DNA from: a virus
Length of the DNA stretch: 64,000 nt
IMG/VR virus record: IMGVR_UViG_3300043137_000338
Direction: 5' to 3' (one strand)
The notes beneath the pieces are model-generated. The model searched no databases, was not told the DNA's origin, and worked only from the letters and a program-made list of their open reading frames with translations. Every line of letters begins with the position of its first letter. Within the stretch, counting starts at the first letter, position 1. Positions 16,119-64,000 of this stretch are shown in pieces. The position numbers and the translations under genes are program-made.

Positions 16119-16555
16119 CTATCGAAATGATCTACTACGACTGGAAACAAGATTCCATGTTAGAGATTATTCTTCCCGAACCTGACAACTTTTTGAAGGT
16201 TCGTGAAACTCTAACTAGAATCGGAATTGCTTCCAGAAAAGAAAATACATTATACCAATCTTGTCATATCTTACATAAACAAGGTAGGTATTTCATTGTA
16301 CACTTTAAAGAATTGTTTGCTTTAGACGGCAAAGAATCGAACATTTCTTTAGAGGATATCGAGCGTAGAAATGCCATTGCAACTCTGCTTCAGGACTGGG
16401 ATCTTCTAAAGATCGTAGTTGCTGCCAAGGCAGAACCAAAAGCATCTATGTCTCAAATTAAGGTCGTCTCCTATAAAGAGAAGGCAAATTGGCAACTAGT
16501 GCCTAAATATAACATAGGTTCTAAGAAAACTAAATTAGAGGTGAAAAATGATTAA
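16115..16555 (+). CDS. regA: translational repressor RegA
   Basis: PDNFLKVRETLTRIGIASRKENTLYQSCHILHKQGRYFIVHFKE nearly identical to T4 RegA; ..QLVPKYNIG.. conserved. Confidence 0.9.
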   Translation: MTIEMIYYDWKQDSMLEIILPEPDNFLKVRETLTRIGIASRKENTLYQSCHILHKQGRYFIVHFKELFALDGKESNISLEDIERRNAIATLLQDWDLLKIVVAAKAEPKASMSQIKVVSYKEKANWQLVPKYNIGSKKTKLEVKND

Positions 16556-16736
16556 TTTGAATTTGAGTATTGATGAGTGTAATGTTATTCTTCGCTCATT
16601 GGGTAAGGGTTCTTTTGAAGAAGTCGCAGGGCTAATCAATAAGATCAAATCTCAGGGAGAAGCCCAGATTGCAGAAATGGAACAGAAAGCTATGGCAGCT
16701 GATCCAAACGTCATCACAGACGTTCCTACTGAATAA
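16548..16736 (+). CDS. small hypothetical protein
   Basis: 62 aa ORF coupled to regA. Confidence 0.35.
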   Translation: MINLNLSIDECNVILRSLGKGSFEEVAGLINKIKSQGEAQIAEMEQKAMAADPNVITDVPTE

Positions 16737-16966
16737 AATTTCCTCGGGATGGGAAGCTAGGCTGACATCCTAGTAAATATCTGTCAAGATCCACCTTAGG
16801 ACCGTTCGGCGTCAACGGTCAAAGATTTATAGAGGTTTCTATATTTCTTAGGCGCTCGAGCAATTGAACTGCCTCTCGTCAGTAGGCGCTGGATAAAGTA
16901 ACCAGCATTTCACTAACCGCTATGCCTTCGGGATAGCAAATTTAACTCGCTAAATAGGAGAAAACT

Positions 16967-17476
16967 ATGACTGATTTCAACATCGGTAAAATCGCATTTG
17001 GTCCAGCATTCAAGGACTTCGACAGATTCTTCGTAGGGTTTGACGATCAAGTGCATCGCATGCAGAAAATTCATGACGATATCACTAAAAATATCCCCAA
17101 CTATCCTCCATATAACATTCGCAAGAATGGGGAGAACTCTTACACCATTGAAATTGCTGTTGCTGGTTTCGCACAAAACGAGATCGACATCGAGATCGAC
17201 GGAGGTAAGTTGATTGTTAAGGGTAACGTTGCATCGACAGACCCAGAAGATAACTTCTTATTCAAAGGTATTGCTACTCGTGCGTTCACACGTGCGTTTG
17301 CTATCGATGATCAAATCGAAGTTAAAAATGCAGAGCTATTCAATGGTATGCTGAAAATCGCTCTGGAGAGATTTATTCCAGAAGAAAAGAAACCAAAGAA
17401 AATCCCTGTGACTTCTAAAGGTCAAAAACGATTTTTAACTGAGGATGAAAAAGATGAACTGGCTGGCAGACTTTAA
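16967..17476 (+). CDS. small heat-shock protein (Hsp20/alpha-crystallin, IbpA-like)
   Basis: PPYNI..YTIEIAVAGFAQNEIDIE..LIVKG..FLFKGIATRAFTRAFAI..VKNAELFNGMLKIALERFIPEEKKP closely parallels E. coli IbpA (PPYNV..[60 protein letters not shown]). Confidence 0.85.
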   Translation: MTDFNIGKIAFGPAFKDFDRFFVGFDDQVHRMQKIHDDITKNIPNYPPYNIRKNGENSYTIEIAVAGFAQNEIDIEIDGGKLIVKGNVASTDPEDNFLFKGIATRAFTRAFAIDDQIEVKNAELFNGMLKIALERFIPEEKKPKKIPVTSKGQKRFLTEDEKDELAGRL

Positions 17477-17570
17477 TCGTTGGCTTTCTGCTTTTAGGAA
17501 GTATAAAAAAGGGAAAGTTAAATGATTAGGTAATCATAAACATGGGGTCTTCGGACCCCTAAATAATTTT

Positions 17571-26004: not shown

Positions 26005-26029
26005 TTATAAATAGTTGTAGGAGGAAACT
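26005..26029 (+). promoter_or_regulatory. T4-type late promoter TATAAATA + AGGAGGAAAC RBS cassette (endonuclease-gene cassette)
   Basis: TATAAATAGTTGTAGGAGGAAACTATG; near-identical cassettes at 58625, 60224 and 61731. Confidence 0.7.
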
Positions 26030-58170: not shown

Positions 58171-58243
58171 ACCCTCTTAGCCAAGCTGGTAAGGCATCGG
58201 ATTTTGATTCCGACATGCGGTGGTTCGAATCCATCAGGGGGTG
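58171..58243 (+). tRNA. tRNA-Gln (UUG)
   Basis: Cloverleaf by hand: acceptor ACCCTCT/AGGGGGT, anticodon loop TTTTGAT, T-loop TTCGAAT, CCA encoded. Confidence 0.75.
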
Positions 58244-58337
58244 CCATATTAAAACATATTATCTGAGTACAAGGCTCAGTGCTACGAAGCAAAATGTCTA
58301 GCAAGCCTCAAGAGGAAGCTATAGTGTGTTTTAATAT

Positions 58338-58398
58338 GGGAGTATGGCGCAGCGGACTTTTAATCCGTTGGTCGAGGGTTCGAATCCCTCTGCTCCTA
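58338..58398 (+). ncRNA. 61-nt tRNA-like element lacking a D-arm (anticodon-loop-like CTTTTAA)
   Basis: Acceptor GGGAGTA/TGCTCCT, anticodon-like arm, T-arm GAGGG TTCGAAT CCCTC and ACCA, but only 7 nt where the D-arm should be. Confidence 0.4.
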
Positions 58399-58416
58399 CC
58401 AAACGAGTTCTTAGGT

Positions 58417-58487
58417 GTGACTATGATGTAGCGGTAGCATCAGAGATTGTGATTCTCTTTGTATGGGTTCAACTCCCATTAGTCACC
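58417..58487 (+). tRNA. tRNA-His (GUG)
   Basis: Acceptor GTGACTA/TAGTCAC, anticodon loop TTGTGAT. Confidence 0.65.
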
Positions 58488-58501
58488 CCTAAGAATTTTA
58501 T

Positions 58502-58574
58502 GCAACTTTAGCTGATGTGGTCATAGCGGTGGTTTGAAGAGCCATTGAAGCAGGTTCGATCCCTGCAGGTTGCA
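58502..58574 (+). tRNA. tRNA-Phe (GAA)
   Basis: Acceptor GCAACTT/AGGTTGC, anticodon loop TTGAAGA, T-loop TTCGATC, CCA encoded. Confidence 0.7.
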
Positions 58575-58582
58575 CCAATAAT

Positions 58583-58620
58583 TCCCGGTTAGCTCAAAGG
58601 TAGAGCATACGACTGATTTA
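58583..58620 (+). pseudogene. truncated tRNA 5' half (acceptor + D-arm + 5' anticodon stem, anticodon-loop start CTGAT), interrupted by the endonuclease cassette
   Basis: TCCCGGT TA GCTC AAAGGTA GAGC A TACGA CTGAT.. runs straight into TTTTATAAATAG; no matching 3' half found downstream. Confidence 0.5.
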
Positions 58621-58624
58621 TTTT

Positions 58625-58651
58625 TATAAATAGATATAGGAGGAAACAACT
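58625..58651 (+). promoter_or_regulatory. late promoter TATAAATA + AGGAGGAAAC cassette
   Basis: TTTTTATAAATAGATATAGGAGGAAACAACTATG. Confidence 0.7.
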
Positions 58652-59254
58652 ATGTTTATTTGTAAATACTGTAGTAAAGATTGCAACAAAAGGTCACATA
58701 AAAATCATGAATTAAGGTGTCCTAAAAATGCAAACAGGGAATATAAAAATGGAATGTTAGGTAAGAAGGGTAGTAATCAATACACAAAATCAAAATCATT
58801 GTGTATTGAGCCGCCAGTATATGACAGATCTAACTGGAAAAGAGGTGGGGCAGCAGCTTGGTCTACCGAAGAAAGATCAGAAAATGCTAAAAAGCAAGGG
58901 TTCGGTGGTTATAGAGAAAACGCTGGTAACTCGAAGAAGTTTCGAGTTATTGACTCGTTTGGAAAAGAAACTACACTTCAAAGTTCTTATGAATTTAGGT
59001 GTAGTGAGATTTTAAATGAACTTGGTATAAAATGGATTAGACCTAAAGCGTTGAAATATGATAATAGGAATTACTTTGCAGATTTTTATCTTCCAGATTT
59101 AGATATCTGGCTTGACCCAAAGAATAGCTATAAAGCAAAACATGACGAAGAAAAGATAAGAAAGGTCATTGAGCAAAACTCTGTTAGATTGTTTGTTCTT
59201 CTGGAACACCAGCTATCTAAAGAATATATTGGGAGATTAGCTGAGACGGATTAG
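58652..59254 (+). CDS. putative homing endonuclease (Cys-rich N-terminus, PD-(D/E)XK/Vsr-like C-terminus)
   Basis: CKYCSKDC..H..C zinc motif; ..FADFYLPDLDIWLDPK.. nuclease-like core; uses the shared endonuclease-gene cassette. Confidence 0.45.
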   Translation: MFICKYCSKDCNKRSHKNHELRCPKNANREYKNGMLGKKGSNQYTKSKSLCIEPPVYDRSNWKRGGAAAWSTEERSENAKKQGFGGYRENAGNSKKFRVIDSFGKETTLQSSYEFRCSEILNELGIKWIRPKALKYDNRNYFADFYLPDLDIWLDPKNSYKAKHDEEKIRKVIEQNSVRLFVLLEHQLSKEYIGRLAETD

Positions 59255-59355
59255 CAGTGTCTTGATAAGGCACAGAGGTTGGATCGTTACCAACATCTTC
59301 TACCAGTAGATTAGTAAGACAGAGGATCGTTACCTCTACTGGGAACCAGATTTAT

Positions 59356-59426
59356 GCGGGATTAGTTTAGTGGTAAAACGTCATCCTTCCAAGTTGAAGT
59401 TGCGAGTTCGATTCTCGCATCCCGCT
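59356..59426 (+). tRNA. tRNA-Gly (UCC)
   Basis: Acceptor GCGGGAT/ATCCCGC, anticodon loop CTTCCAA, CCA encoded. Confidence 0.75.
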
Positions 59427-59635
59427 CCAGTTTTAGGATCATTTCAGCAAACTTAAAAACTTTCTTTTATCCAGAAACTAAAAAGTTGATCCTGTTATTT
59501 TCAATTCCGCAGAACCCGAGCATGGTGCATGGGCTTGACTGTTAATCAATGTTTAGCTGGGATCGTTACCCAGATGCGGAGCCAAATATCGCCTTGACTG
59601 ATGGCGTACAATGAGATAAGTAATCAGTCACCTAT

Positions 59636-59707
59636 GCCTCGTTAACTCAGCGGTAGAGTGTCTCCCTTACAAGGAGAAGGTCGGCGGTTCGAACCCGTCA
59701 CGAGGTA
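59636..59707 (+). tRNA. tRNA-Val (UAC)
   Basis: Acceptor GCCTCGT/ACGAGGT, anticodon loop CTTACAA, T-loop TTCGAAC, CCA encoded. Confidence 0.7.
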
Positions 59708-59716
59708 CCAAATTTC

Positions 59717-59790
59717 GCGTCTTTAGCACAACTGGATAGTGCACTGGGCTACGAACTCAGAGGTTGGGGATTCGAATTCCTCAGGACGCA
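59717..59790 (+). tRNA. tRNA-Arg (ACG)
   Basis: Acceptor GCGTCTT/AGGACGC, anticodon loop CTACGAA, CCA encoded. Confidence 0.7.
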
Positions 59791-59800
59791 CCAAACAAAT

Positions 59801-59889
59801 GGAAAGTAATGCAGCGGGGTTGGTCCTGCGACCAGCCTTGAAAACTGGGTTCTCAGAAATGGGATGGGGTTCGACTCCTCTGCTTTCCG
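59801..59889 (+). tRNA. tRNA-Ser (UGA), type II
   Basis: Acceptor GGAAAGT/GCTTTCC, anticodon arm CCAGC CTTGAAA ACTGG, long variable arm, CCA encoded. Confidence 0.7.
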
Positions 59890-59898
59890 CCAAATTAT

Positions 59899-59981
59899 GG
59901 AGTGAATGGAACAATGGTGTTCTAGCTGGCTGTAACCCAGTGGCACTTCGGTGCAGGTAGGTTCGATCCCTACTCACTTCA
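59899..59981 (+). tRNA. tRNA-Tyr (GUA), type II
   Basis: Anticodon arm GCTGG CTGTAAC CCAGT, variable hairpin GCAC TTCG GTGC, CCA encoded. Confidence 0.65.
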
Positions 59982-59990
59982 CCAAGTTTT

Positions 59991-60098
59991 AGGATACTTA
60001 CAGCAAAACTAACTCAAACGTTAGGTAACTGGTTCGACTCCAGTTTCACGCAATAGCGCGAATAGCTCATTCGGTAGAGCAGACGAAGAAAGTATCCT
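59991..60098 (+). ncRNA. circularly permuted tRNA-like element closed by a 9-bp inverted repeat
   Basis: Order is anticodon-like hairpin, T-arm ACTGG TTCGACT CCAGT, 3' acceptor TTCACGC-A, 3-nt spacer, 5' acceptor GCGCGAA, D-arm TA GCTC ATTCGGTA GAGC; flanked by AGGATACTT (59991-59999) and AAGTATCCT (60090-60098). Confidence 0.4.
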
Positions 60099-60108
60099 GT
60101 TATTCAAT

Positions 60109-60193
60109 GGAAGCGTGGCAGAGTGGTCTATTGTATCTGTCTAGAAAGCAGCCGACTCGAAAGGGTCCGTGAGTTCGAATCTCACCGCTTCCT
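60109..60193 (+). tRNA. type II tRNA (Ser-like), anticodon loop CUAGAAA (nominal anticodon AGA; identity uncertain)
   Basis: Acceptor GGAAGCG/CGCTTCC, D-loop GAGTGGTCTAT, variable hairpin GACTC GAAA GGGTC, T-loop TTCGAAT. Confidence 0.5.
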
Positions 60194-60223
60194 CCCTTGA
60201 GTTGATGTCAAGACTCGAACTTT

Positions 60224-60249
60224 TATAAATAGTTACATAGGAGGAAACT
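60224..60249 (+). promoter_or_regulatory. late promoter TATAAATA + AGGAGGAAAC cassette
   Basis: CTTTTATAAATAGTTACATAGGAGGAAACTATG. Confidence 0.7.
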
Positions 60250-60876
60250 ATGTACTATACTGTTTATAAAATAACGAATCGAATCAATGGTAAGATCTAT
60301 ATTGGATCACATAAAACCAAAGATTTGAATGACAATTATATGGGTTCTGGAAAGTATCTTAAATACTCTCAAGAGAAGCATGGTATAGAAAATTTTACCA
60401 AAGAAATTCTTTTTGTTTTTGATACTCCAGAACTTATGTACGCAAAAGAAGCTGAGATTGTTAATGATGAATTCCTTGCTGAAGAAAATACATACAATCT
60501 AAAGCTAGGTGGATATGGTGGGTTTGATTATCTAAATGCTTGGAAGGAAAATCCGACACATTCTGCTGACCATTACTTAAAGATGTCTTTGCGATTGAAA
60601 GAAAAATATCCAAATAGTCCTATGTACGGACGTAAACATTCTGAAGATTCTAAAAGTAAAAACAGTCAATCTAATCTTGGTAATCAAAGGTTTCTTGGGC
60701 GTAAACATTCTGACGAAACTAAACAAAAAATGCGCTATAGCGCATTGGAAAAACATAGTAAAGATAAAAATTCGCAGTTCGGAACTATGTGGATAACCGA
60801 TGGTTTGGAAAACAAAAAGATCAATAAACTACACGAAATTCCTGATGGTTGGCGTCGTGGTAGAGTGATAAATTAA
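60250..60876 (+). CDS. GIY-YIG homing endonuclease (SegB-like, in tRNA cluster)
   Basis: YKITNRINGKIYIGSHK GIY-YIG motif, repeated NUMOD3-like GRKHSEDSK / GRKHSDETK. Confidence 0.8.
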   Translation: MYYTVYKITNRINGKIYIGSHKTKDLNDNYMGSGKYLKYSQEKHGIENFTKEILFVFDTPELMYAKEAEIVNDEFLAEENTYNLKLGGYGGFDYLNAWKENPTHSADHYLKMSLRLKEKYPNSPMYGRKHSEDSKSKNSQSNLGNQRFLGRKHSDETKQKMRYSALEKHSKDKNSQFGTMWITDGLENKKINKLHEIPDGWRRGRVIN

Positions 60877-60902
60877 GTATCTTCGCATACTTCAGATGGG
60901 TC

Positions 60903-60931
60903 TTGACTTTTGATGAATTGTGTAGTAGAAT
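60903..60931 (+). promoter_or_regulatory. sigma70-type promoter TTGACT..N18..TAGAAT
   Basis: Preceded by hairpin AAGTATCTTCGCATACTT 60876-60893. Confidence 0.45.
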
Positions 60932-61038
60932 AGAAACATATGAATATGAATGGGAAGAACAAGAACTTGTTCTTTCGTTGATTAACAAATGGAGAAACGG
61001 TGATCGATTCTCTGCTAATGATTATAGGAGGAAGTCAC

Positions 61039-61618
61039 ATGCCAGCAGTATTTTTAGTATCTGACACACACTTTCGGGCATAGTGGAGTATGCAGATTCA
61101 CTGAGGCAGACGGAGTGACTAAGATTCGACCGTGGACTGATCCAGAAGAAATGGATGAGGAAATGGTCAAGCGATGGAACGAAACCGTCAAGCCAAACGA
61201 CAAGGTTTATCACTTAGGTGACGTTGTCATTAACCGCAAGTCGTTAAGTATTATGAGCCGGTTAAATGGTGACAAGGTTCTGATCAAGGGTAACCATGAC
61301 ATCTTCAAGTTAGAGGAATATACTCAATACTTCAGAGACATTCGTGGTAGTCATGTGATGAACGGTATGATTTTAACTCATATCCCTCTGCATCCAAGAC
61401 AATTATATCGTTTCGGTACTAACATTCATGGTCACTTACATACCAATCGTGTTATGTTTGACGACAAGGAAATGGGTGAGATTATCGATCCGCGTTACTT
61501 CTGTGTTTGCGTTGAACAAACAGATTTTCGCCCTATCTTATTTGAAGACGTAATTAAGCGTATCAAAGAACAGGGTGGTACCGTGGGTTTCAAGAACGGT
61601 AATGGTCCAGTGATGTAA
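61039..61618 (+). pseudogene. calcineurin-like metallophosphoesterase interrupted by a +1 frameshift at UUU CGG G (61072-61078)
   Basis: Frame 1 gives MPAVFLVSDTHF then R A stop; frame +1 continues GHSGV.. and carries GNHD and GHLH motifs; removing C61075 restores DTHFGH. Confidence 0.6.
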
Positions 61619-61730
61619 GAATTGGAAGATGATCTCGGTGCTTCCGTTCTCCCGAGTTAGAATAACTGATATCGTTTCAGTAAGACGGAGCCAAATTTAG
61701 GAGGATTACGGTTTCGTAAACTGTTATTTT

Positions 61731-61767
61731 TATAAATAGATGTATACTAATTATAAGGAGAAACAGT
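61731..61767 (+). promoter_or_regulatory. late promoter TATAAATA + AAGGAGAAAC cassette
   Basis: TTTTTATAAATAGATGTATACTAATTATAAGGAGAAACAGTATG. Confidence 0.65.
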
Positions 61768-62181
61768 ATGAATACTAACGAAAAGGGTGTCCGTGGTTTA
61801 ATTAAAGTAATTGACGATCTACAGAGCAATGGTTATTATGTATTTAATGCATTCGATGATCATTCTCCTGTGGATGTTATAGCGATGGATAAAACTGGAA
61901 AAACATTCAGGATTCAGATAAAGTATCGTCAAGCCACTGTAAAAAAGAACAAAGGCAACACATACAATCTTGGAGCGTTTTCCATAGTTAATTCTAAAAA
62001 AATTGAAATAGATCGTAGTTTAATCGATGGATGGGCAGTATATATGGCAGACGATAATAAAGTTGTGTATATTCCTGTTAAATCTATGGAAGGTAAAAAA
62101 GAAACTACGTTATATGGTAGTGAAGTTTATGGAGAGTTGACAGAGTGGCAATGTGCTGGTTTGCTAAACCAAGACCACTGA
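61768..62181 (+). CDS. putative PD-(D/E)XK-like nuclease (mobile endonuclease candidate); its last 51 nt are the 5' part of tRNA-Ser
   Basis: ..DVIAMDK..FRIQIK.. D..(D/E)xK-like core; the C-terminal residues ..YGELTEWQCAGLLNQDH are encoded by the tRNA-Ser(GCU) acceptor, D and anticodon arms. Confidence 0.45.
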   Translation: MNTNEKGVRGLIKVIDDLQSNGYYVFNAFDDHSPVDVIAMDKTGKTFRIQIKYRQATVKKNKGNTYNLGAFSIVNSKKIEIDRSLIDGWAVYMADDNKVVYIPVKSMEGKKETTLYGSEVYGELTEWQCAGLLNQDH

Positions 62182-62217
62182 GTAATCGGTGCAAGCGTTC
62201 GATCCGCTTACTCTCCG
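62131..62217 (+). tRNA. tRNA-Ser (GCU), type II
   Basis: Acceptor GGAGAGT/ACTCTCC, anticodon arm CTGGT TTGCTAA ACCAA, T-arm AAGCG TTCGATC CGCTT, CCA encoded. Confidence 0.7.
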
Positions 62218-62228
62218 CCAAGAAGTAT

Positions 62229-62317
62229 ACCTCGATAGTTTAACGGTAAAACGGCGGATTTATATCCCGTAAGCAACAGATAATTGGTTCATCCGAGTTC
62301 GATTCTCGGTCGAGGTA
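62229..62317 (+). tRNA. 89-nt tRNA-like gene, anticodon loop TTTATAT (UAU, Ile/AUA) with 22-nt variable region
   Basis: Acceptor ACCTCGA/TCGAGGT, D-arm GTTT AACGGTA AAAC, T-arm CCGAG TTCGATT CTCGG, CCA encoded; extra length unexplained. Confidence 0.45.
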
Positions 62318-62325
62318 CCATATAT

Positions 62326-62399
62326 GCCCTGGTGACGGAATTGGTATACGTGCTTGACTCAAAATCAAGATTTTGTGGGTTCGAGTCCCACCTGGGGCA
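62326..62399 (+). tRNA. tRNA with anticodon CAA (nominally Leu) but a short type I variable loop
   Basis: Acceptor GCCCTGG/CTGGGGC, anticodon arm CTTGA CTCAAAA TCAAG, T-loop TTCGAGT, CCA encoded. Confidence 0.5.
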
Positions 62400-62411
62400 C
62401 CAAAGATGTGC

Positions 62412-62440
62412 TTGACTTTAAATCAAGTCTCATGTATAAT
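62412..62440 (+). promoter_or_regulatory. early promoter TTGACTTTAAATCA..N..TATAAT inside the tRNA cluster
   Basis: -35 62412-62417, -10 62435-62440. Confidence 0.6.
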
Positions 62441-62452
62441 AGCTGTATGAAA

Positions 62453-62533
62453 GCGAGAGTGGTGTAATGGCAGCCACAGGAGACTTAAAATCTCCCGCCG
62501 AAAGGCATGCGGGTTCGAGTCCCGCCTCTCGCA
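62453..62533 (+). tRNA. tRNA-Leu (UAA), type II
   Basis: Acceptor GCGAGAG/CTCTCGC, anticodon arm GGAGA CTTAAAA TCTCC, variable arm CGCCGAAAGGCATG, CCA encoded. Confidence 0.8.
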
Positions 62534-62545
62534 CCAAAGAATTTT

Positions 62546-62618
62546 CTGGCGTTCGTATAATGGATTAATACAGTGCTCTTCTAAAGCACGAATAGGGGTT
62601 CGATTCCCTTACGCCGGA
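62546..62618 (+). tRNA. tRNA-Arg (UCU)
   Basis: Anticodon arm GTGCT CTTCTAA AGCAC, T-loop TTCGATT, CCA encoded. Confidence 0.7.
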
Positions 62619-62628
62619 CCAGATTGAT

Positions 62629-62702
62629 GGGCTTCTAGCTCATGTTGGTTAGAGCAGCGAACTCATAATTCGTTGGTGCCGAGTTCGACTCTCGGGGAGC
62701 CC
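62629..62702 (+). tRNA. tRNA-Met/Ile2 (CAU)
   Basis: Acceptor GGGCTTC/GGAGCCC, D-arm TA GCTC ATGTTGGTTA GAGC, anticodon loop CTCATAA, CCA encoded. Confidence 0.75.
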
Positions 62703-62717
62703 ACCATAGAAATGTAT

Positions 62718-62792
62718 GTACGAGTGGCAGAGTGGTCAAATGCAACGGATTGCAAATCCGTAAAGTCGTGAGTTCGAATCTCACCTTGTACT
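62718..62792 (+). tRNA. tRNA-Cys (GCA)
   Basis: Anticodon arm ACGGA TTGCAAA TCCGT, T-loop TTCGAAT, CCA encoded. Confidence 0.65.
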
Positions 62793-62805
62793 CCAAAAAT
62801 TAGTG

Positions 62806-62862
62806 CTTGACTTTAATTCGCTTCTGTAGTAAAATAGGTGCTTAGGTTGAGTGAAGAAGTTG
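62806..62862 (+). repeat. 57-nt promoter repeat unit copy C
   Basis: GCTTGACTTTAATTCGCTTCTGTAGTAAAATAGGTGCTTAGGTTGAGTGAAGAAGTTG. Confidence 0.7.
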
Positions 62863-62888
62863 ATGTTGTTGGTTAGTTGCTACGAAGT

Positions 62889-62940
62889 GCTTGACTTTAA
62901 TTCGCTTCTGTAGTAAAATAGGTGCTTAGGTTGATTAGGA
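62889..62940 (+). repeat. 57-nt promoter repeat unit copy D (leader runs into the RBS of the next ORF)
   Basis: Identical to copy C through AGGTGCTTAGGTTGA, then TTAGGAGC. Confidence 0.7.
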
Positions 62941-62946
62941 GCTTAT

Positions 62947-63177
62947 ATGGGAATGATGAAAAACCTGGTTATTGACATCCAAGAATCTATTGAGCTTGGC
63001 GATGATTTTGACGAGATCGCTGATCGCTTTAATGTTAGCTTGGCTGATGTTGAAGCAATTGCTGATGCGATGGATTCTAGCTATGATGAATCAATGGACG
63101 GTGATCATGATTCTGCAATGGCTTCTGCTGGTTTTGGAACCGATGAAGATTACGGTTACGCTGGCGAAGATTTCTGA
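62947..63177 (+). CDS. small highly acidic protein
   Basis: 76 aa, D/E-rich; TAGGAG RBS. Confidence 0.45.
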   Translation: MGMMKNLVIDIQESIELGDDFDEIADRFNVSLADVEAIADAMDSSYDESMDGDHDSAMASAGFGTDEDYGYAGEDF

Positions 63178-63264
63178 AGCCCTCTCTGAGTCTTTACGTA
63201 AAGTCGGAAGCCTGAGGCACTAAGAAGGTTTGGATGTTTTTCCTCACACAAAAACATCCGTTAT

Positions 63265-63337
63265 GCTCTGTTCGTCTAACGGTTAGGACGCTGCCCTTTC
63301 AAGGCGGAAACGAGGGGTTCGATTCCCCCACGGAGTA
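63265..63337 (+). tRNA. tRNA-Glu (UUC)
   Basis: D-arm GTCT AACGGTTA GGAC, anticodon arm CTGCC CTTTCAA GGCGG, CCA encoded; preceded by hairpin GGATGTTTTT..AAAACATCC 63231-63259. Confidence 0.65.
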
Positions 63338-63347
63338 CCAGAATTTT

Positions 63348-63419
63348 GGGCTGATAGTGATAATGGGAGCACAGGGGCTTTGCAAGCCTTTAGTCGGGGT
63401 TCGATCCCCCGTCGGTCCA
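63348..63419 (+). tRNA. tRNA-Ala (UGC)
   Basis: Anticodon arm GGGGC TTTGCAA GCCTT, T-loop TTCGATC, CCA encoded. Confidence 0.65.
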
Positions 63420-63427
63420 CCAAATAT

Positions 63428-63499
63428 GCGTTGTAAACTTTGATGATGAAGTCCCGGCTCTTAACCGGCGAGAAGAAAGTTTGACTCTTTCACGACGCA
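63428..63499 (+). tRNA. tRNA-Lys (CUU), atypical T-loop TTTGACT
   Basis: Acceptor GCGTTGT/ACGACGC, anticodon arm CCGG CTCTTAA CCGG, CCA encoded. Confidence 0.5.
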
Positions 63500-63512
63500 C
63501 CAAGTTTTCAAT

Positions 63513-63586
63513 CCGAGTGTAGCGCAGTCTGGTAGCGCATCTGCTTTGGGAGCAGGAGGTCGTAGGTTCGAATCCTACTACTCGGA
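63513..63586 (+). tRNA. tRNA-Pro (UGG)
   Basis: D-arm TA GCGC AGTCTGGTA GCGC, anticodon arm TCTGC TTTGGGA GCAGG, CCA encoded. Confidence 0.75.
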
Positions 63587-63674
63587 CCACAGTTTTTAGG
63601 ATAGTTTCTGCAAATTATACAGACTACTCAAATTGGATTGTCTTAGTCGACAACACTATCCTGTTGTATTTAAT

Positions 63675-63756
63675 GGAGATGAAGCATCAATGGTGATGCA
63701 GTGGACTGTAAATCCGCCGCCCTCGGGCACGACTGGTTCGATCCCAGTAATCTCCA
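63675..63756 (+). tRNA. second tRNA-Tyr-like (GUA), type II
   Basis: Acceptor GGAGATG/AATCTCC (one mismatch), anticodon arm GTGGA CTGTAAA TCCGC, variable hairpin GCCC TC GGGC, CCA encoded. Confidence 0.55.
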
Positions 63757-63766
63757 CCAAGTTTAT

Positions 63767-63838
63767 GGCTCGTTCGTATAAAGGTTATTACTTCGGATTG
63801 TCTATCCGATTATGGGAGTTCGATTCTCCCACGAGTCG
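63767..63838 (+). tRNA. tRNA-Asp (GUC)
   Basis: Anticodon arm TCGGA TTGTCTA TCCGA, T-loop TTCGATT, CCA encoded. Confidence 0.7.
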
Positions 63839-64000
63839 CCAAGTTTTGTAAGTGTAGATGTTGAGAAAGCATAGCCTCGAAAACTATGTGAGTTTACGGT
63901 TCGAGTCCGACAACACGGTAACAAACATGTATCAACTATTACTACGTACCTCTAACCCTAACGTATACAGGGCGAAATGGTAGCGAATGAGAGAGGCGCT

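Follow-up and report, generated by a model that had tools for sequence, protein, structure and literature searches.

A putative ROSE-like RNA thermometer in the hsp20 leader of an uncultured T4-like phage and its relatives

The hsp20 locus and the hairpins at its ribosome-binding site

The 64,000-nucleotide stretch of viral DNA analyzed here (IMG/VR record IMGVR_UViG_3300043137_000338, hereafter the window) belongs to a T4-like myovirus known only as an uncultured virus, from JGI sample 3300043036, and encodes a small heat-shock protein (sHSP) behind a long leader, the end of which resembles the ROSE-type RNA thermometers of bacterial ibpA genes. The Hsp20 open reading frame (ORF; 16967-17476, plus strand, 169 residues in the window's ORF list) matches the Pfam HSP20 family (PF00011, E=3e-16) and thus contains the alpha-crystallin domain. 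The protein is assigned to PHROG 432 by profile search, and its top NCBIfam model is IbpA (113 bits, under the equivalog cut-off of 212). These matches bear out the alpha-crystallin/IbpA-like assignment made in an earlier sequence-only reading of the window. The protein is 41% identical to Salmonella IbpA across the aligned region and 43% identical to a betaproteobacterial sHSP, and the protein collection holds more than 5000 homologues at E <= 1e-10. Genomic neighborhood analysis places hsp20 among gp45-, gp44- and gp62-like clamp and clamp-loader genes, RegA (PF01818), a 62-residue ORF and an ATP-dependent ligase. Based on gp44, the nearest cultured phages are Pelagibacter phage HTVC008M and cyanomyoviruses (∼57% identity); at the DNA level, regA alone (77%) matches cultured phages.

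Between the 62-residue ORF and hsp20 lie 230 nt (16737-16966) in which the ORF list shows no credible ORF, in agreement with the sequence-only reading; this leader is overlapped by a 34-residue ORF starting with TTG at its start and by an 87-residue antisense ORF at its end. A small ORF within the leader (AUG-GGA-A.., in the 5' motif M1 described below) was rejected, as its peptides range from 3 to >60 codons and are unconserved. Homologues of the 62-residue ORF (..GKHPFEEV..KIKxQG.PQ..), which has no match in Pfam or PHROG, occur upstream of the leader in most related loci. The stretch 16737-16966 is presumably transcribed as the 5' untranslated region (UTR) of the sHSP mRNA. The features that frame it, and the two hairpins next to the ribosome-binding site (RBS) with its Shine-Dalgarno (SD) sequence, are:

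16548..16736, plus strand: 62-residue ORF after regA; its stop codon is the 5' limit of the leader
16919..16937, plus strand: ROSE-like hairpin I, GCUAU[G]CC-UUCG-GGAUAGC, G16924 bulged (covariation; ROSE_3 alignment)
16946..16960, plus strand: ROSE-like hairpin II, anti-SD CUC[G]CU 16946-51, loop AAAU, SD AGGAG 16956-60 (predicted fold; ROSE_3 alignment)
16967..17476, plus strand: sHSP gene, IbpA/IbpB-like, 169 residues (Pfam, PHROG and NCBIfam matches)

A protein-based scan of IMG/VR yields 69 loci whose sHSPs are 59-84% identical to that of the window, with 37 distinct leaders. Hairpin I, first quoted as GCTATGCC-TTCG-GGATAGC and present in the window at 16919-37, is 95% paired in these 37 relatives, with GC, AU, UA and CG seen at four or five pair positions. 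Five pairs carry two-sided changes, none of 500 shuffles matches the observed covariation, and no slid register comes close. The result recurs in 72 independently gathered distinct phage sequences (94.8% paired, four pairs two-sided, 0/500 shuffles), which were collected with a search pattern that left the lower stem of hairpin I unconstrained.

Hairpin II is near-invariant. The ACUCGCUUAAUAGGAG segment is almost unchanged in the 37 distinct leaders and the linkers drift; the anti-SD motif opposite the SD is kept in 37/37, with CUUGCU and UUCGCU variants. The sole substitution in the anti-SD strand among relatives is a C to U facing a G, which is the U(U/C)GCU degeneracy, and because both strands are invariant, no compensatory change is available. 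G16949 is unpaired in the predicted hairpin and matches the bulge position in the ROSE_3 model, and a 6-nt spacer separates the SD AGGAG from the AUG (16967). The 15-mer CTCGCTWAATAGGAG occurs once in the 64 kb with up to two mismatches tolerated (0.17 expected). The window has a single copy each of this ROSE 15-mer, of M1 and of the upstream motif M2, and a generic phage motif was rejected on that ground.

A permissive Rfam scan of 1.2 kb around the leader returns ROSE_3 (RF02523; gathering threshold, 43 bits) as the top match, lying exactly on the RBS of the window (18.7 bits, E=0.48), and in the alignment both hairpins and both bulged Gs line up. ROSE_3 also ranks first at this site in several other phages, and its score is 27.0 bits (E=0.044) in the relative L025, 34.1 bits (E=0.0012) in Methylophilales phage Melnitz and 19 bits in Synechococcus phage S-CREM1. 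The window remains below threshold because the phage SD helix is 2 bp shorter. ROSE (RF00435) and ROSE_2 (RF01832) give no match at E <= 10 in the window region or the phage loci; Salmonella ibpA, the positive control for the scan, scores 95 bits against ROSE_2.

The predicted free energy of hairpin II in the window falls from -1.9 kcal/mol at 37 °C to -5.1 kcal/mol at 10 °C. At 37 °C, close relatives reach -2.5 kcal/mol, cultured phages -1.5 to -4.1, Salmonella ibpA -4.9 and the ROSE_3 consensus -7.8. Cooled to 10-20 °C, the hairpins of the phages attain -4 to -6.5 kcal/mol, which reaches the 37 °C value of Salmonella. On these modeled energies, the weaker SD hairpin of the phages may reflect a set-point moved down to cool natural waters.

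The last ∼50 nt of the leader thus combine a stable hairpin with, downstream of it, a U(U/C)GCU that faces the SD and has a bulged G, and this element (16919-16960) ends 6 nt ahead of the Hsp20 AUG. The leader also contains the several hairpins typical of ROSE-like elements: P_c and P_d, described below, and hairpin I carry compensatory changes, and hairpin II contains the SD. The ROSE-type thermometer proposed in the sequence-only reading is thus supported by the comparative evidence. Structure and conservation are ROSE-like, and comparison with the ROSE models puts ROSE_3 first, on the RBS, albeit below threshold, but the SD-sequestering hairpin had been overlooked, and the resemblance to ROSE is confined to the last quarter of the 230 nt. 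All three hairpins named in that reading are present, and two of them (P_c and hairpin I) show compensatory changes, whereas P_a shows none. The features that had escaped notice are the SD hairpin (16946-60), P_d (16888-906) and a 5' hairpin with a pseudoknot (16740-86).

Distribution of the element in phages and bacteria

R1, a covariance model built from hairpins I and II, matches all related loci in which the leader region is present. Absence or lack of conservation of the leader in sHSP-bearing relatives, which the sequence-only reading had named as part of what would refute its proposal, is accordingly not what the relatives display. In 16 loci (L001, positions 755-979; also L002, L014, L018, L027-L032, L037, L048, L049, L053, L055 and L056), a 75-residue ORF (..FAKIVAKAHVDFYTSLG..AKKAFAKQ) without a family match in Pfam, PHROG or NCBIfam lies between leader and sHSP. 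The ROSE-like element is 5' of this inserted ORF and therefore heads a two-gene operon, and the end of the ORF, within ∼10 nt of the sHSP start or overlapping it, suggests translational coupling. A second ROSE element at the junction of the two genes was not counted, as its UUUGCU..AAGGAG overlaps the codons F-A-K-Q-stop and is not conserved in L001, L031 and L053-56. Four further loci (L215, L221, L217 and L223) encode a 48-residue rubredoxin (PF00301, 34 bits) after the leader, ∼90-260 nt past M1, and a second CUUGCUU-loop-AAGGAG hairpin precedes their hsp20 or 75-residue ORF; these are operons with two ROSE-like RBS hairpins.

The association with hsp20 is equally apparent when the search starts from the RNA. 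An RNA-only pattern (GCCTTCGGG, gap, CTCGCT, gap, AGGAG) matches at least 120 stretches of IMG/VR, and 80 of these loci were inspected. The pattern is followed by an Hsp20 ORF in 66 and by the 75-residue ORF in 8; of the remaining loci, five are truncated at the end of a contig or of insufficient length for a call, and one is an apparent chance match. Where the downstream gene is readable, it belongs to an hsp20 operon in 74/74 contigs.

Among cultured phages, R1 with filters off matches directly 5' of hsp20 in nine, including most of the cyanophages and pelagiphages sampled. The scores are 41.9 bits in Synechococcus phage ACG-2014f, 34.9 in Prochlorococcus phage P-SSM2, 33.3 in Methylophilales phage Melnitz, 28.7 in Synechococcus phage S-CREM1, 28.1 in Prochlorococcus phage P-SSM7, 24.7 in Pelagibacter phage Mosig, 24.3 in Pelagibacter phage HTVC103P, 20.8 in Synechococcus phage S-PM2 and 15.9 in Synechococcus phage S-CAM1. 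DSL-LC02 gives a marginal match (12.7 bits, E=0.75), and cyanophage S-TIM5 gives none with the same settings. These leaders share a common plan: a promoter-like TATAAATA, TAAATAG or TATAAT stands 5-8 nt ahead of hairpin I, followed by ..Y[G]CC-loop-GGG.., a linker and ACU(C/U)GCUU-loop-AAGGAG. Judged by sequence, they are two-hairpin UTRs of the kind found in Pseudomonas ibpA. Other RNA elements adjoin hsp20 in two of these phages, a manA RNA in P-SSM2 (L078:1-82, 58 bits) and, in S-CREM1, a tandem glutamine riboswitch (L076:797-893, 33.5 bits) that the phage's own record already annotates.

In S-PM2, the conserved strand has been read differently, as a DNA site. The sequence ATTCAAACTCGCTTAAATA, at -31 of hsp20, is given as the putative Pho box of S-PM2d130 (Hsp20), responsive to P limitation (PMC10976474), and if it is a binding site for PhoB, conservation of the anti-SD strand might be explained without RNA structure. 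The same sequence (L077:530-567) corresponds to the loop and anti-SD strand of the ROSE-like SD hairpin. Its conserved core can pair with the SD next to it and retains the bulged G; it is strand-specific, lies within the transcript, downstream of promoter-like motifs, and is shared by pelagiphages, a methylophage and betaproteobacteria. Next to the core, moreover, stands a hairpin rich in compensatory changes, for which constraint at the RNA level is the only explanation, and this makes the Pho box a highly improbable account of the conservation.

Beyond phages, a tighter DNA pattern applied to bacterial and archaeal assemblies, one genome per species, returns six stretches. Two are betaproteobacterial contigs of metagenome-assembled genomes (MAGs; GC 56-58%) with a two-hairpin leader 5' of IbpA-like genes (L208:1132-1196 and L210:1689-1738), including a UUCG loop, a bulged G and ACUCGCUU..AAGGAG. 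ROSE_3 scores 36.8 bits on L208, whose sHSP is the one with 43% identity to that of the window, and L210 has no ROSE match at E <= 10. As a betaproteobacterial ibpA-like leader also falls under 43 bits, the ROSE_3 threshold appears tuned to Pseudomonas. The shared architecture indicates that the phage element resembles a bacterial ibpA leader type for which the Rfam threshold is narrow, and common descent would account for the resemblance rather than convergence. The other four stretches look like cyanophage DNA in MAGs or in an isolate assembly. Their cyanophage-type hsp20 leaders and genes (L207, L209, L211 and L212) occur in MAGs labeled Lewinella, Euryarchaeota and Acidimicrobiaceae and, for L209, on a 188-kb contig of the flavobacterial isolate assembly Nonlabens xiamenensis 1Q3; most likely, this is phage DNA binned or co-assembled with those genomes.

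A proposed mechanism and its standing

The sHSP mRNA of the phage probably has the whole leader as its 5' UTR, the last ∼50 nt of which would act as a miniature ROSE-like RNA thermometer. Hairpin I (16919-37; G+C-rich, with a UUCG loop and one bulged G) would serve as a temperature-insensitive scaffold, and hairpin II would hold the SD AGGAG against CUCGCU, with G16949 bulged, so that the ribosome is excluded when cool. Hairpin II has only five pairs and a bulge, so gradual melting is expected on warming; the melted hairpin would free the SD and allow more sHSP translation, with no protein factor needed. We infer SD occlusion in vivo, its melting with temperature, the lowered set-point and the transcript 5' end. 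The defining features of the ROSE-like family and its function in Pseudomonas are experimentally established (PMC3669281, PMC11342760). The preserved sequence features support a function like that of the short ROSE-like thermometers, to which the phage element is probably homologous.

Several points weigh against this interpretation. No phage sequence scanned attains the ROSE_3 gathering score of 43 bits, and as hairpin II lacks compensatory changes, the case for its pairing is drawn from homology and thermodynamics alone. A 5-bp hairpin of about -2 kcal/mol may, by its modeled energy, give weak repression only, and nearest-neighbor ensemble modeling of the full leaders is noisy, without clean melting between 15 and 37 °C. 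The fold of a short window fragment shows a competing AUAG/CUAU helix, and the full-length window fold pairs the SD with UUUCCU of the 5' end (P=0.85). This last pairing, strongly predicted in the window, is absent from relatives and therefore treated as window-specific or an artefact; across the modeled relatives, the only recurrent SD partner is the ROSE anti-SD. The window also lacks the good TATAAATAG promoter found before M1 in relatives, with only AATAAAAT in that place. Finally, heat induction is of no obvious use to a lytic phage in a thermally buffered habitat.

Some of these observations would fit hairpins that act constitutively, with the 5' structures stabilizing the mRNA and the SD hairpin damping translation to a fixed level or timing it, so that temperature is no signal. 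The SD hairpin is predicted to be very weak, the modeled SD accessibility of full leaders changes little from 15 to 37 °C, and the 5' hairpin and pseudoknot stand at the predicted transcript start, the usual place for protective structures. Simple damping would be served by any sequence complementary to the SD, however, and the U(U/C)GCU with its bulged G persists in phages and bacteria that are very distant from one another, in the very arrangement that experiments have shown to give heat induction (PMC3669281, PMC11342760). Conservation of the bulged-G arrangement therefore counts against purely constitutive hairpins, which are an unlikely explanation, if a serious one.

The 5' module, the wider locus and known systems

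Upstream of the candidate thermometer, the other ∼180 nt of the leader are a different, lineage-specific set of structures that is not ROSE-like. They may act as folding or stability modules or as a second regulatory input. In 5' to 3' order, they are:

16740..16755, plus strand: M1 hairpin, UUCC(U)-CGGGAU-(G)GGAA, with invariant GGGAUGGGAA at 16746-55 (conserved in relatives)
16756..16786, plus strand: H-type pseudoknot (parse of 22 relatives)
16756-61 with 16769-74, plus strand: pseudoknot stem S1, GCUAGG with CCUAGU
16763-67 with 16782-86, plus strand: pseudoknot stem S2, UGACA with UGUCA
16775-81, plus strand: A-rich loop 3 of the pseudoknot
16792..16800, plus strand: M2 motif CACCUUAGG (YACCUURGG in ∼40 distinct leaders)
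16800..16820, plus strand: hairpin P_a, GACCGUU-CGGCGUC-AACGGUC (weak support)
16828..16843, plus strand: window-specific hairpin UAUAGA-GGUU-UCUAUA (minimum-free-energy fold)
16871..16887, plus strand: hairpin P_c, GCCU-CUCGUCAGU-AGGC (compensatory changes)
16888..16906, plus strand: hairpin P_d, GCUGG-AUAAAGUAA-CCAGC, conserved AGUAA in the loop (covariation)

The M1 hairpin and the pseudoknot form the 5' module, for which Rfam offers no family match. M1 is unique within the window and, in relatives, lies 4-9 nt downstream of a late-type promoter, TAAATA(G). An M1-pattern scan of IMG/VR returns 13 contigs, 12 with the motif in an hsp20 leader and one matched by chance; with that one exception, the module is seen in hsp20 leaders only. 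The 22 relatives parsed for the pseudoknot have 15 different helices for S1 and 18 for S2, which are 96-97% paired, compared with 50-61% after partner shuffling (0/2000 shuffles); for S2 the values are 97% and 50%, and loop 3 is 60% A. The helices were chosen by eye at fixed positions, which biases this permutation test somewhat. The permutation was made between sequences, a per-sequence shuffle being powerless for pseudoknot helices of 4-6 bp. The TAAATA at 16774-79 was rejected as a late promoter, because it is the A-rich loop 3 of the pseudoknot and the late-type promoters of the window read TTTTATAAATAG.

A long-range pairing of M2 with the SD hairpin, proposed by RNAalifold between CACCUUAGG and the loop and 3' arm of hairpin II, was also rejected. 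It shows no covariation, both sides being invariant; one pair is broken in the window, L098, L161 and L164 alter the hairpin-II loop yet keep M2, and partition-function modeling finds the pairing in only a few leaders. In L040, L057 and L031, ∼130 nt 5' of the AUG, a diverged second 5' module is present, comprising GUCCCACUACCUUGGGAAC and a CCAG..CUUGG..CUGG-UUAAACAAA-CCAAGG pseudoknot, which suggests that M2 arose by duplication of M1. In L061 / L218 (IMGVR_UViG_3300007177_000796), an insertion of ∼650 nt splits the 5' module from the rest of the leader.

The remaining hairpins are unevenly conserved. P_d is 100% paired in 34 distinct sequences, with three pairs two-sided and a covariation of 0.43 compared with 0.095 when shuffled (0/500). 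P_c is 100% paired in the window's sub-class, with two-sided changes in 4/4 pairs, and 98% paired in other sub-classes, with two-sided changes in 4/5 pairs. P_a is 84% paired in 10 sequences of the window's sub-class, with one-sided changes only, and the hairpin at 16828-16843 sits in an insertion absent from most aligned relatives.

A further rival is control by a phage protein, with RegA, the gene of which lies just upstream, the single-strand-binding protein or the sHSP itself as candidate repressors acting through the 5' module or the RBS region. The T4 gene 32 pseudoknot is the model for such control. M1 and M2 show an invariance of sequence that base pairing would not require, the pseudoknot stems covary around an A-rich loop 3, and regA is syntenic with hsp20 in many Kyanoviridae. 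Yet many leaders with the ROSE-like part lack the 5' module, including those of all cultured phages examined, and the module is therefore not the core mechanism. Protein-mediated repression is quite unlikely as the explanation of the leader, and it is compatible with the thermometer as an added layer.

The sequence-only reading had alternatively suggested that the leader encodes a separate small RNA, from an independent gene or by processing. The 5' module is indeed self-contained and well folded, measures ∼50 nt and has its own promoter-like motif in relatives. No terminator follows it, however; in L060, L065, L099 and L152 it adjoins hairpin I within ∼12 nt, and it is found in hsp20 leaders only. 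A small RNA is thus very unlikely here.

Downstream of the gene, a G+C-rich hairpin (GGGGTC-TTCG-GACCCC, window 17544-17559) lies 68 nt past the sHSP stop and is followed by TAAATAATTTT; the hsp20 transcript may end at this hairpin, with the next unit starting there. The TTTTATAAATAG motif precedes other window genes and not the hsp20 leader. Its copies at 26006, 58625, 60224 and 61731 are T4-late-promoter-like and stand 24-37 nt ahead of ORF starts, with strong AGGAGG sites after them. Twenty tRNA genes are clustered at 58171-63841 (plus strand), with ARAGORN and Rfam in agreement on most.

A broader proposition joins two claims: that the leader is a two-input RNA, in which the thermosensor at the RBS is combined with the 5' module, and that T4-like cyanophages and pelagiphages in general have their core gene hsp20 under ROSE-type thermosensing. 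Both together are a tentative idea, considerably less likely than the thermometer by itself. The 5' module (GGGAUGGGAA hairpin and pseudoknot) may then be a new class of sensor or protein-binding domain, for example a ligand-binding or autoregulatory pseudoknot or an exonuclease block, and may tune the sHSP during infection.

T4-like cyanophages have hsp20 among their core genes (PMC3037559), and a literature search, which left out subscription journals, found no paper tying cyanophage hsp20 to an RNA thermometer; a ROSE-like element upstream of hsp20 in aquatic phages is apparently unreported so far. If the interpretation is correct, a conserved, protein-independent thermosensor on hsp20 would let abundant phages of oceans and lakes sense temperature directly during infection. 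It would add a large family to the short list of phage RNA thermometers (PMC11182007), as the first ROSE-like case, and the SD hairpin cut to 5 base pairs may be how ROSE is tuned to cool waters. The RNA-level constraints would likewise offer an alternative reading of the putative Pho box of S-PM2 (PMC10976474), and the 5' hairpin and pseudoknot would constitute an unclassified new RNA module.

Known systems resemble the leader to different degrees. The T4 gene 32 5' pseudoknot is likewise H-type, at the 5' end of a T4-like leader and tens of nucleotides before the RBS; the analogy applies to the 5' module only, the gene is another one, and the GGGAUGGGAA hairpin precedes the pseudoknot here. 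Among phage thermometers, lambda cIII, the fourU of SPbeta blyA and a sigma-70 candidate share temperature-gated translation in a phage transcript (PMC11182007, PMC10586365), and blyA was counted as only the second such element from any phage genome (PMC11182007). Unlike the present element, these comprise an alternative-structure switch and fourU, on other genes, and none is ROSE-like or linked to hsp20.

Within the ROSE families, the rhizobial four-hairpin ROSE (RF00435) also places several 5' hairpins before the SD hairpin, as do the consecutive P_c, P_d, I and II of the window, but its upstream hairpins have no sequence similarity to those of the phage, which give no Rfam match, and the phage SD hairpin is much shorter. 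Enterobacterial ibpA (ROSE_2, RF01832) shares the gene family and the UCGCU/AGGAG pairing; it differs in its three hairpins and longer SD helix, and phage sequences score nothing for ROSE_2. The enterobacterial ibpA-ibpB intergenic region is a thermometer as well. It has a parallel in some phage operons, in which a second CUUGCUU..AAGGAG hairpin lies between two genes, and R1 weakly matches the Salmonella ibpB leader (AACUCGCUU..AGAAGGAG).

The Pseudomonas ibpA ROSE_3 (RF02523; Krajewski et al. 2013, PMC3669281) shares the most specific features: two hairpins in the 5' UTR of an IbpA-type gene with the AUG unpaired, a G+C-rich hairpin I with ..AU[G]CC..GGGU.. and one bulged G, a hairpin II that pairs ACUCGCU with AGGAG around a bulged G, and a promoter immediately ahead of hairpin I, as in the cultured phages. 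Unlike ROSE_3, the phage hairpin II is 2 bp shorter (CUCGCU-N4-AGGAG compared with CUCGCUGA-N4-UCAGGAG) and ∼4-6 kcal/mol weaker; the element is phage-borne, its score is sub-threshold, and the lineage of the window adds ∼180 nt of conserved structure upstream. The element is thus best filed as a phage-borne, shortened ROSE variant, which in this lineage is part of a longer leader whose 5' pseudoknot module is unclassified.

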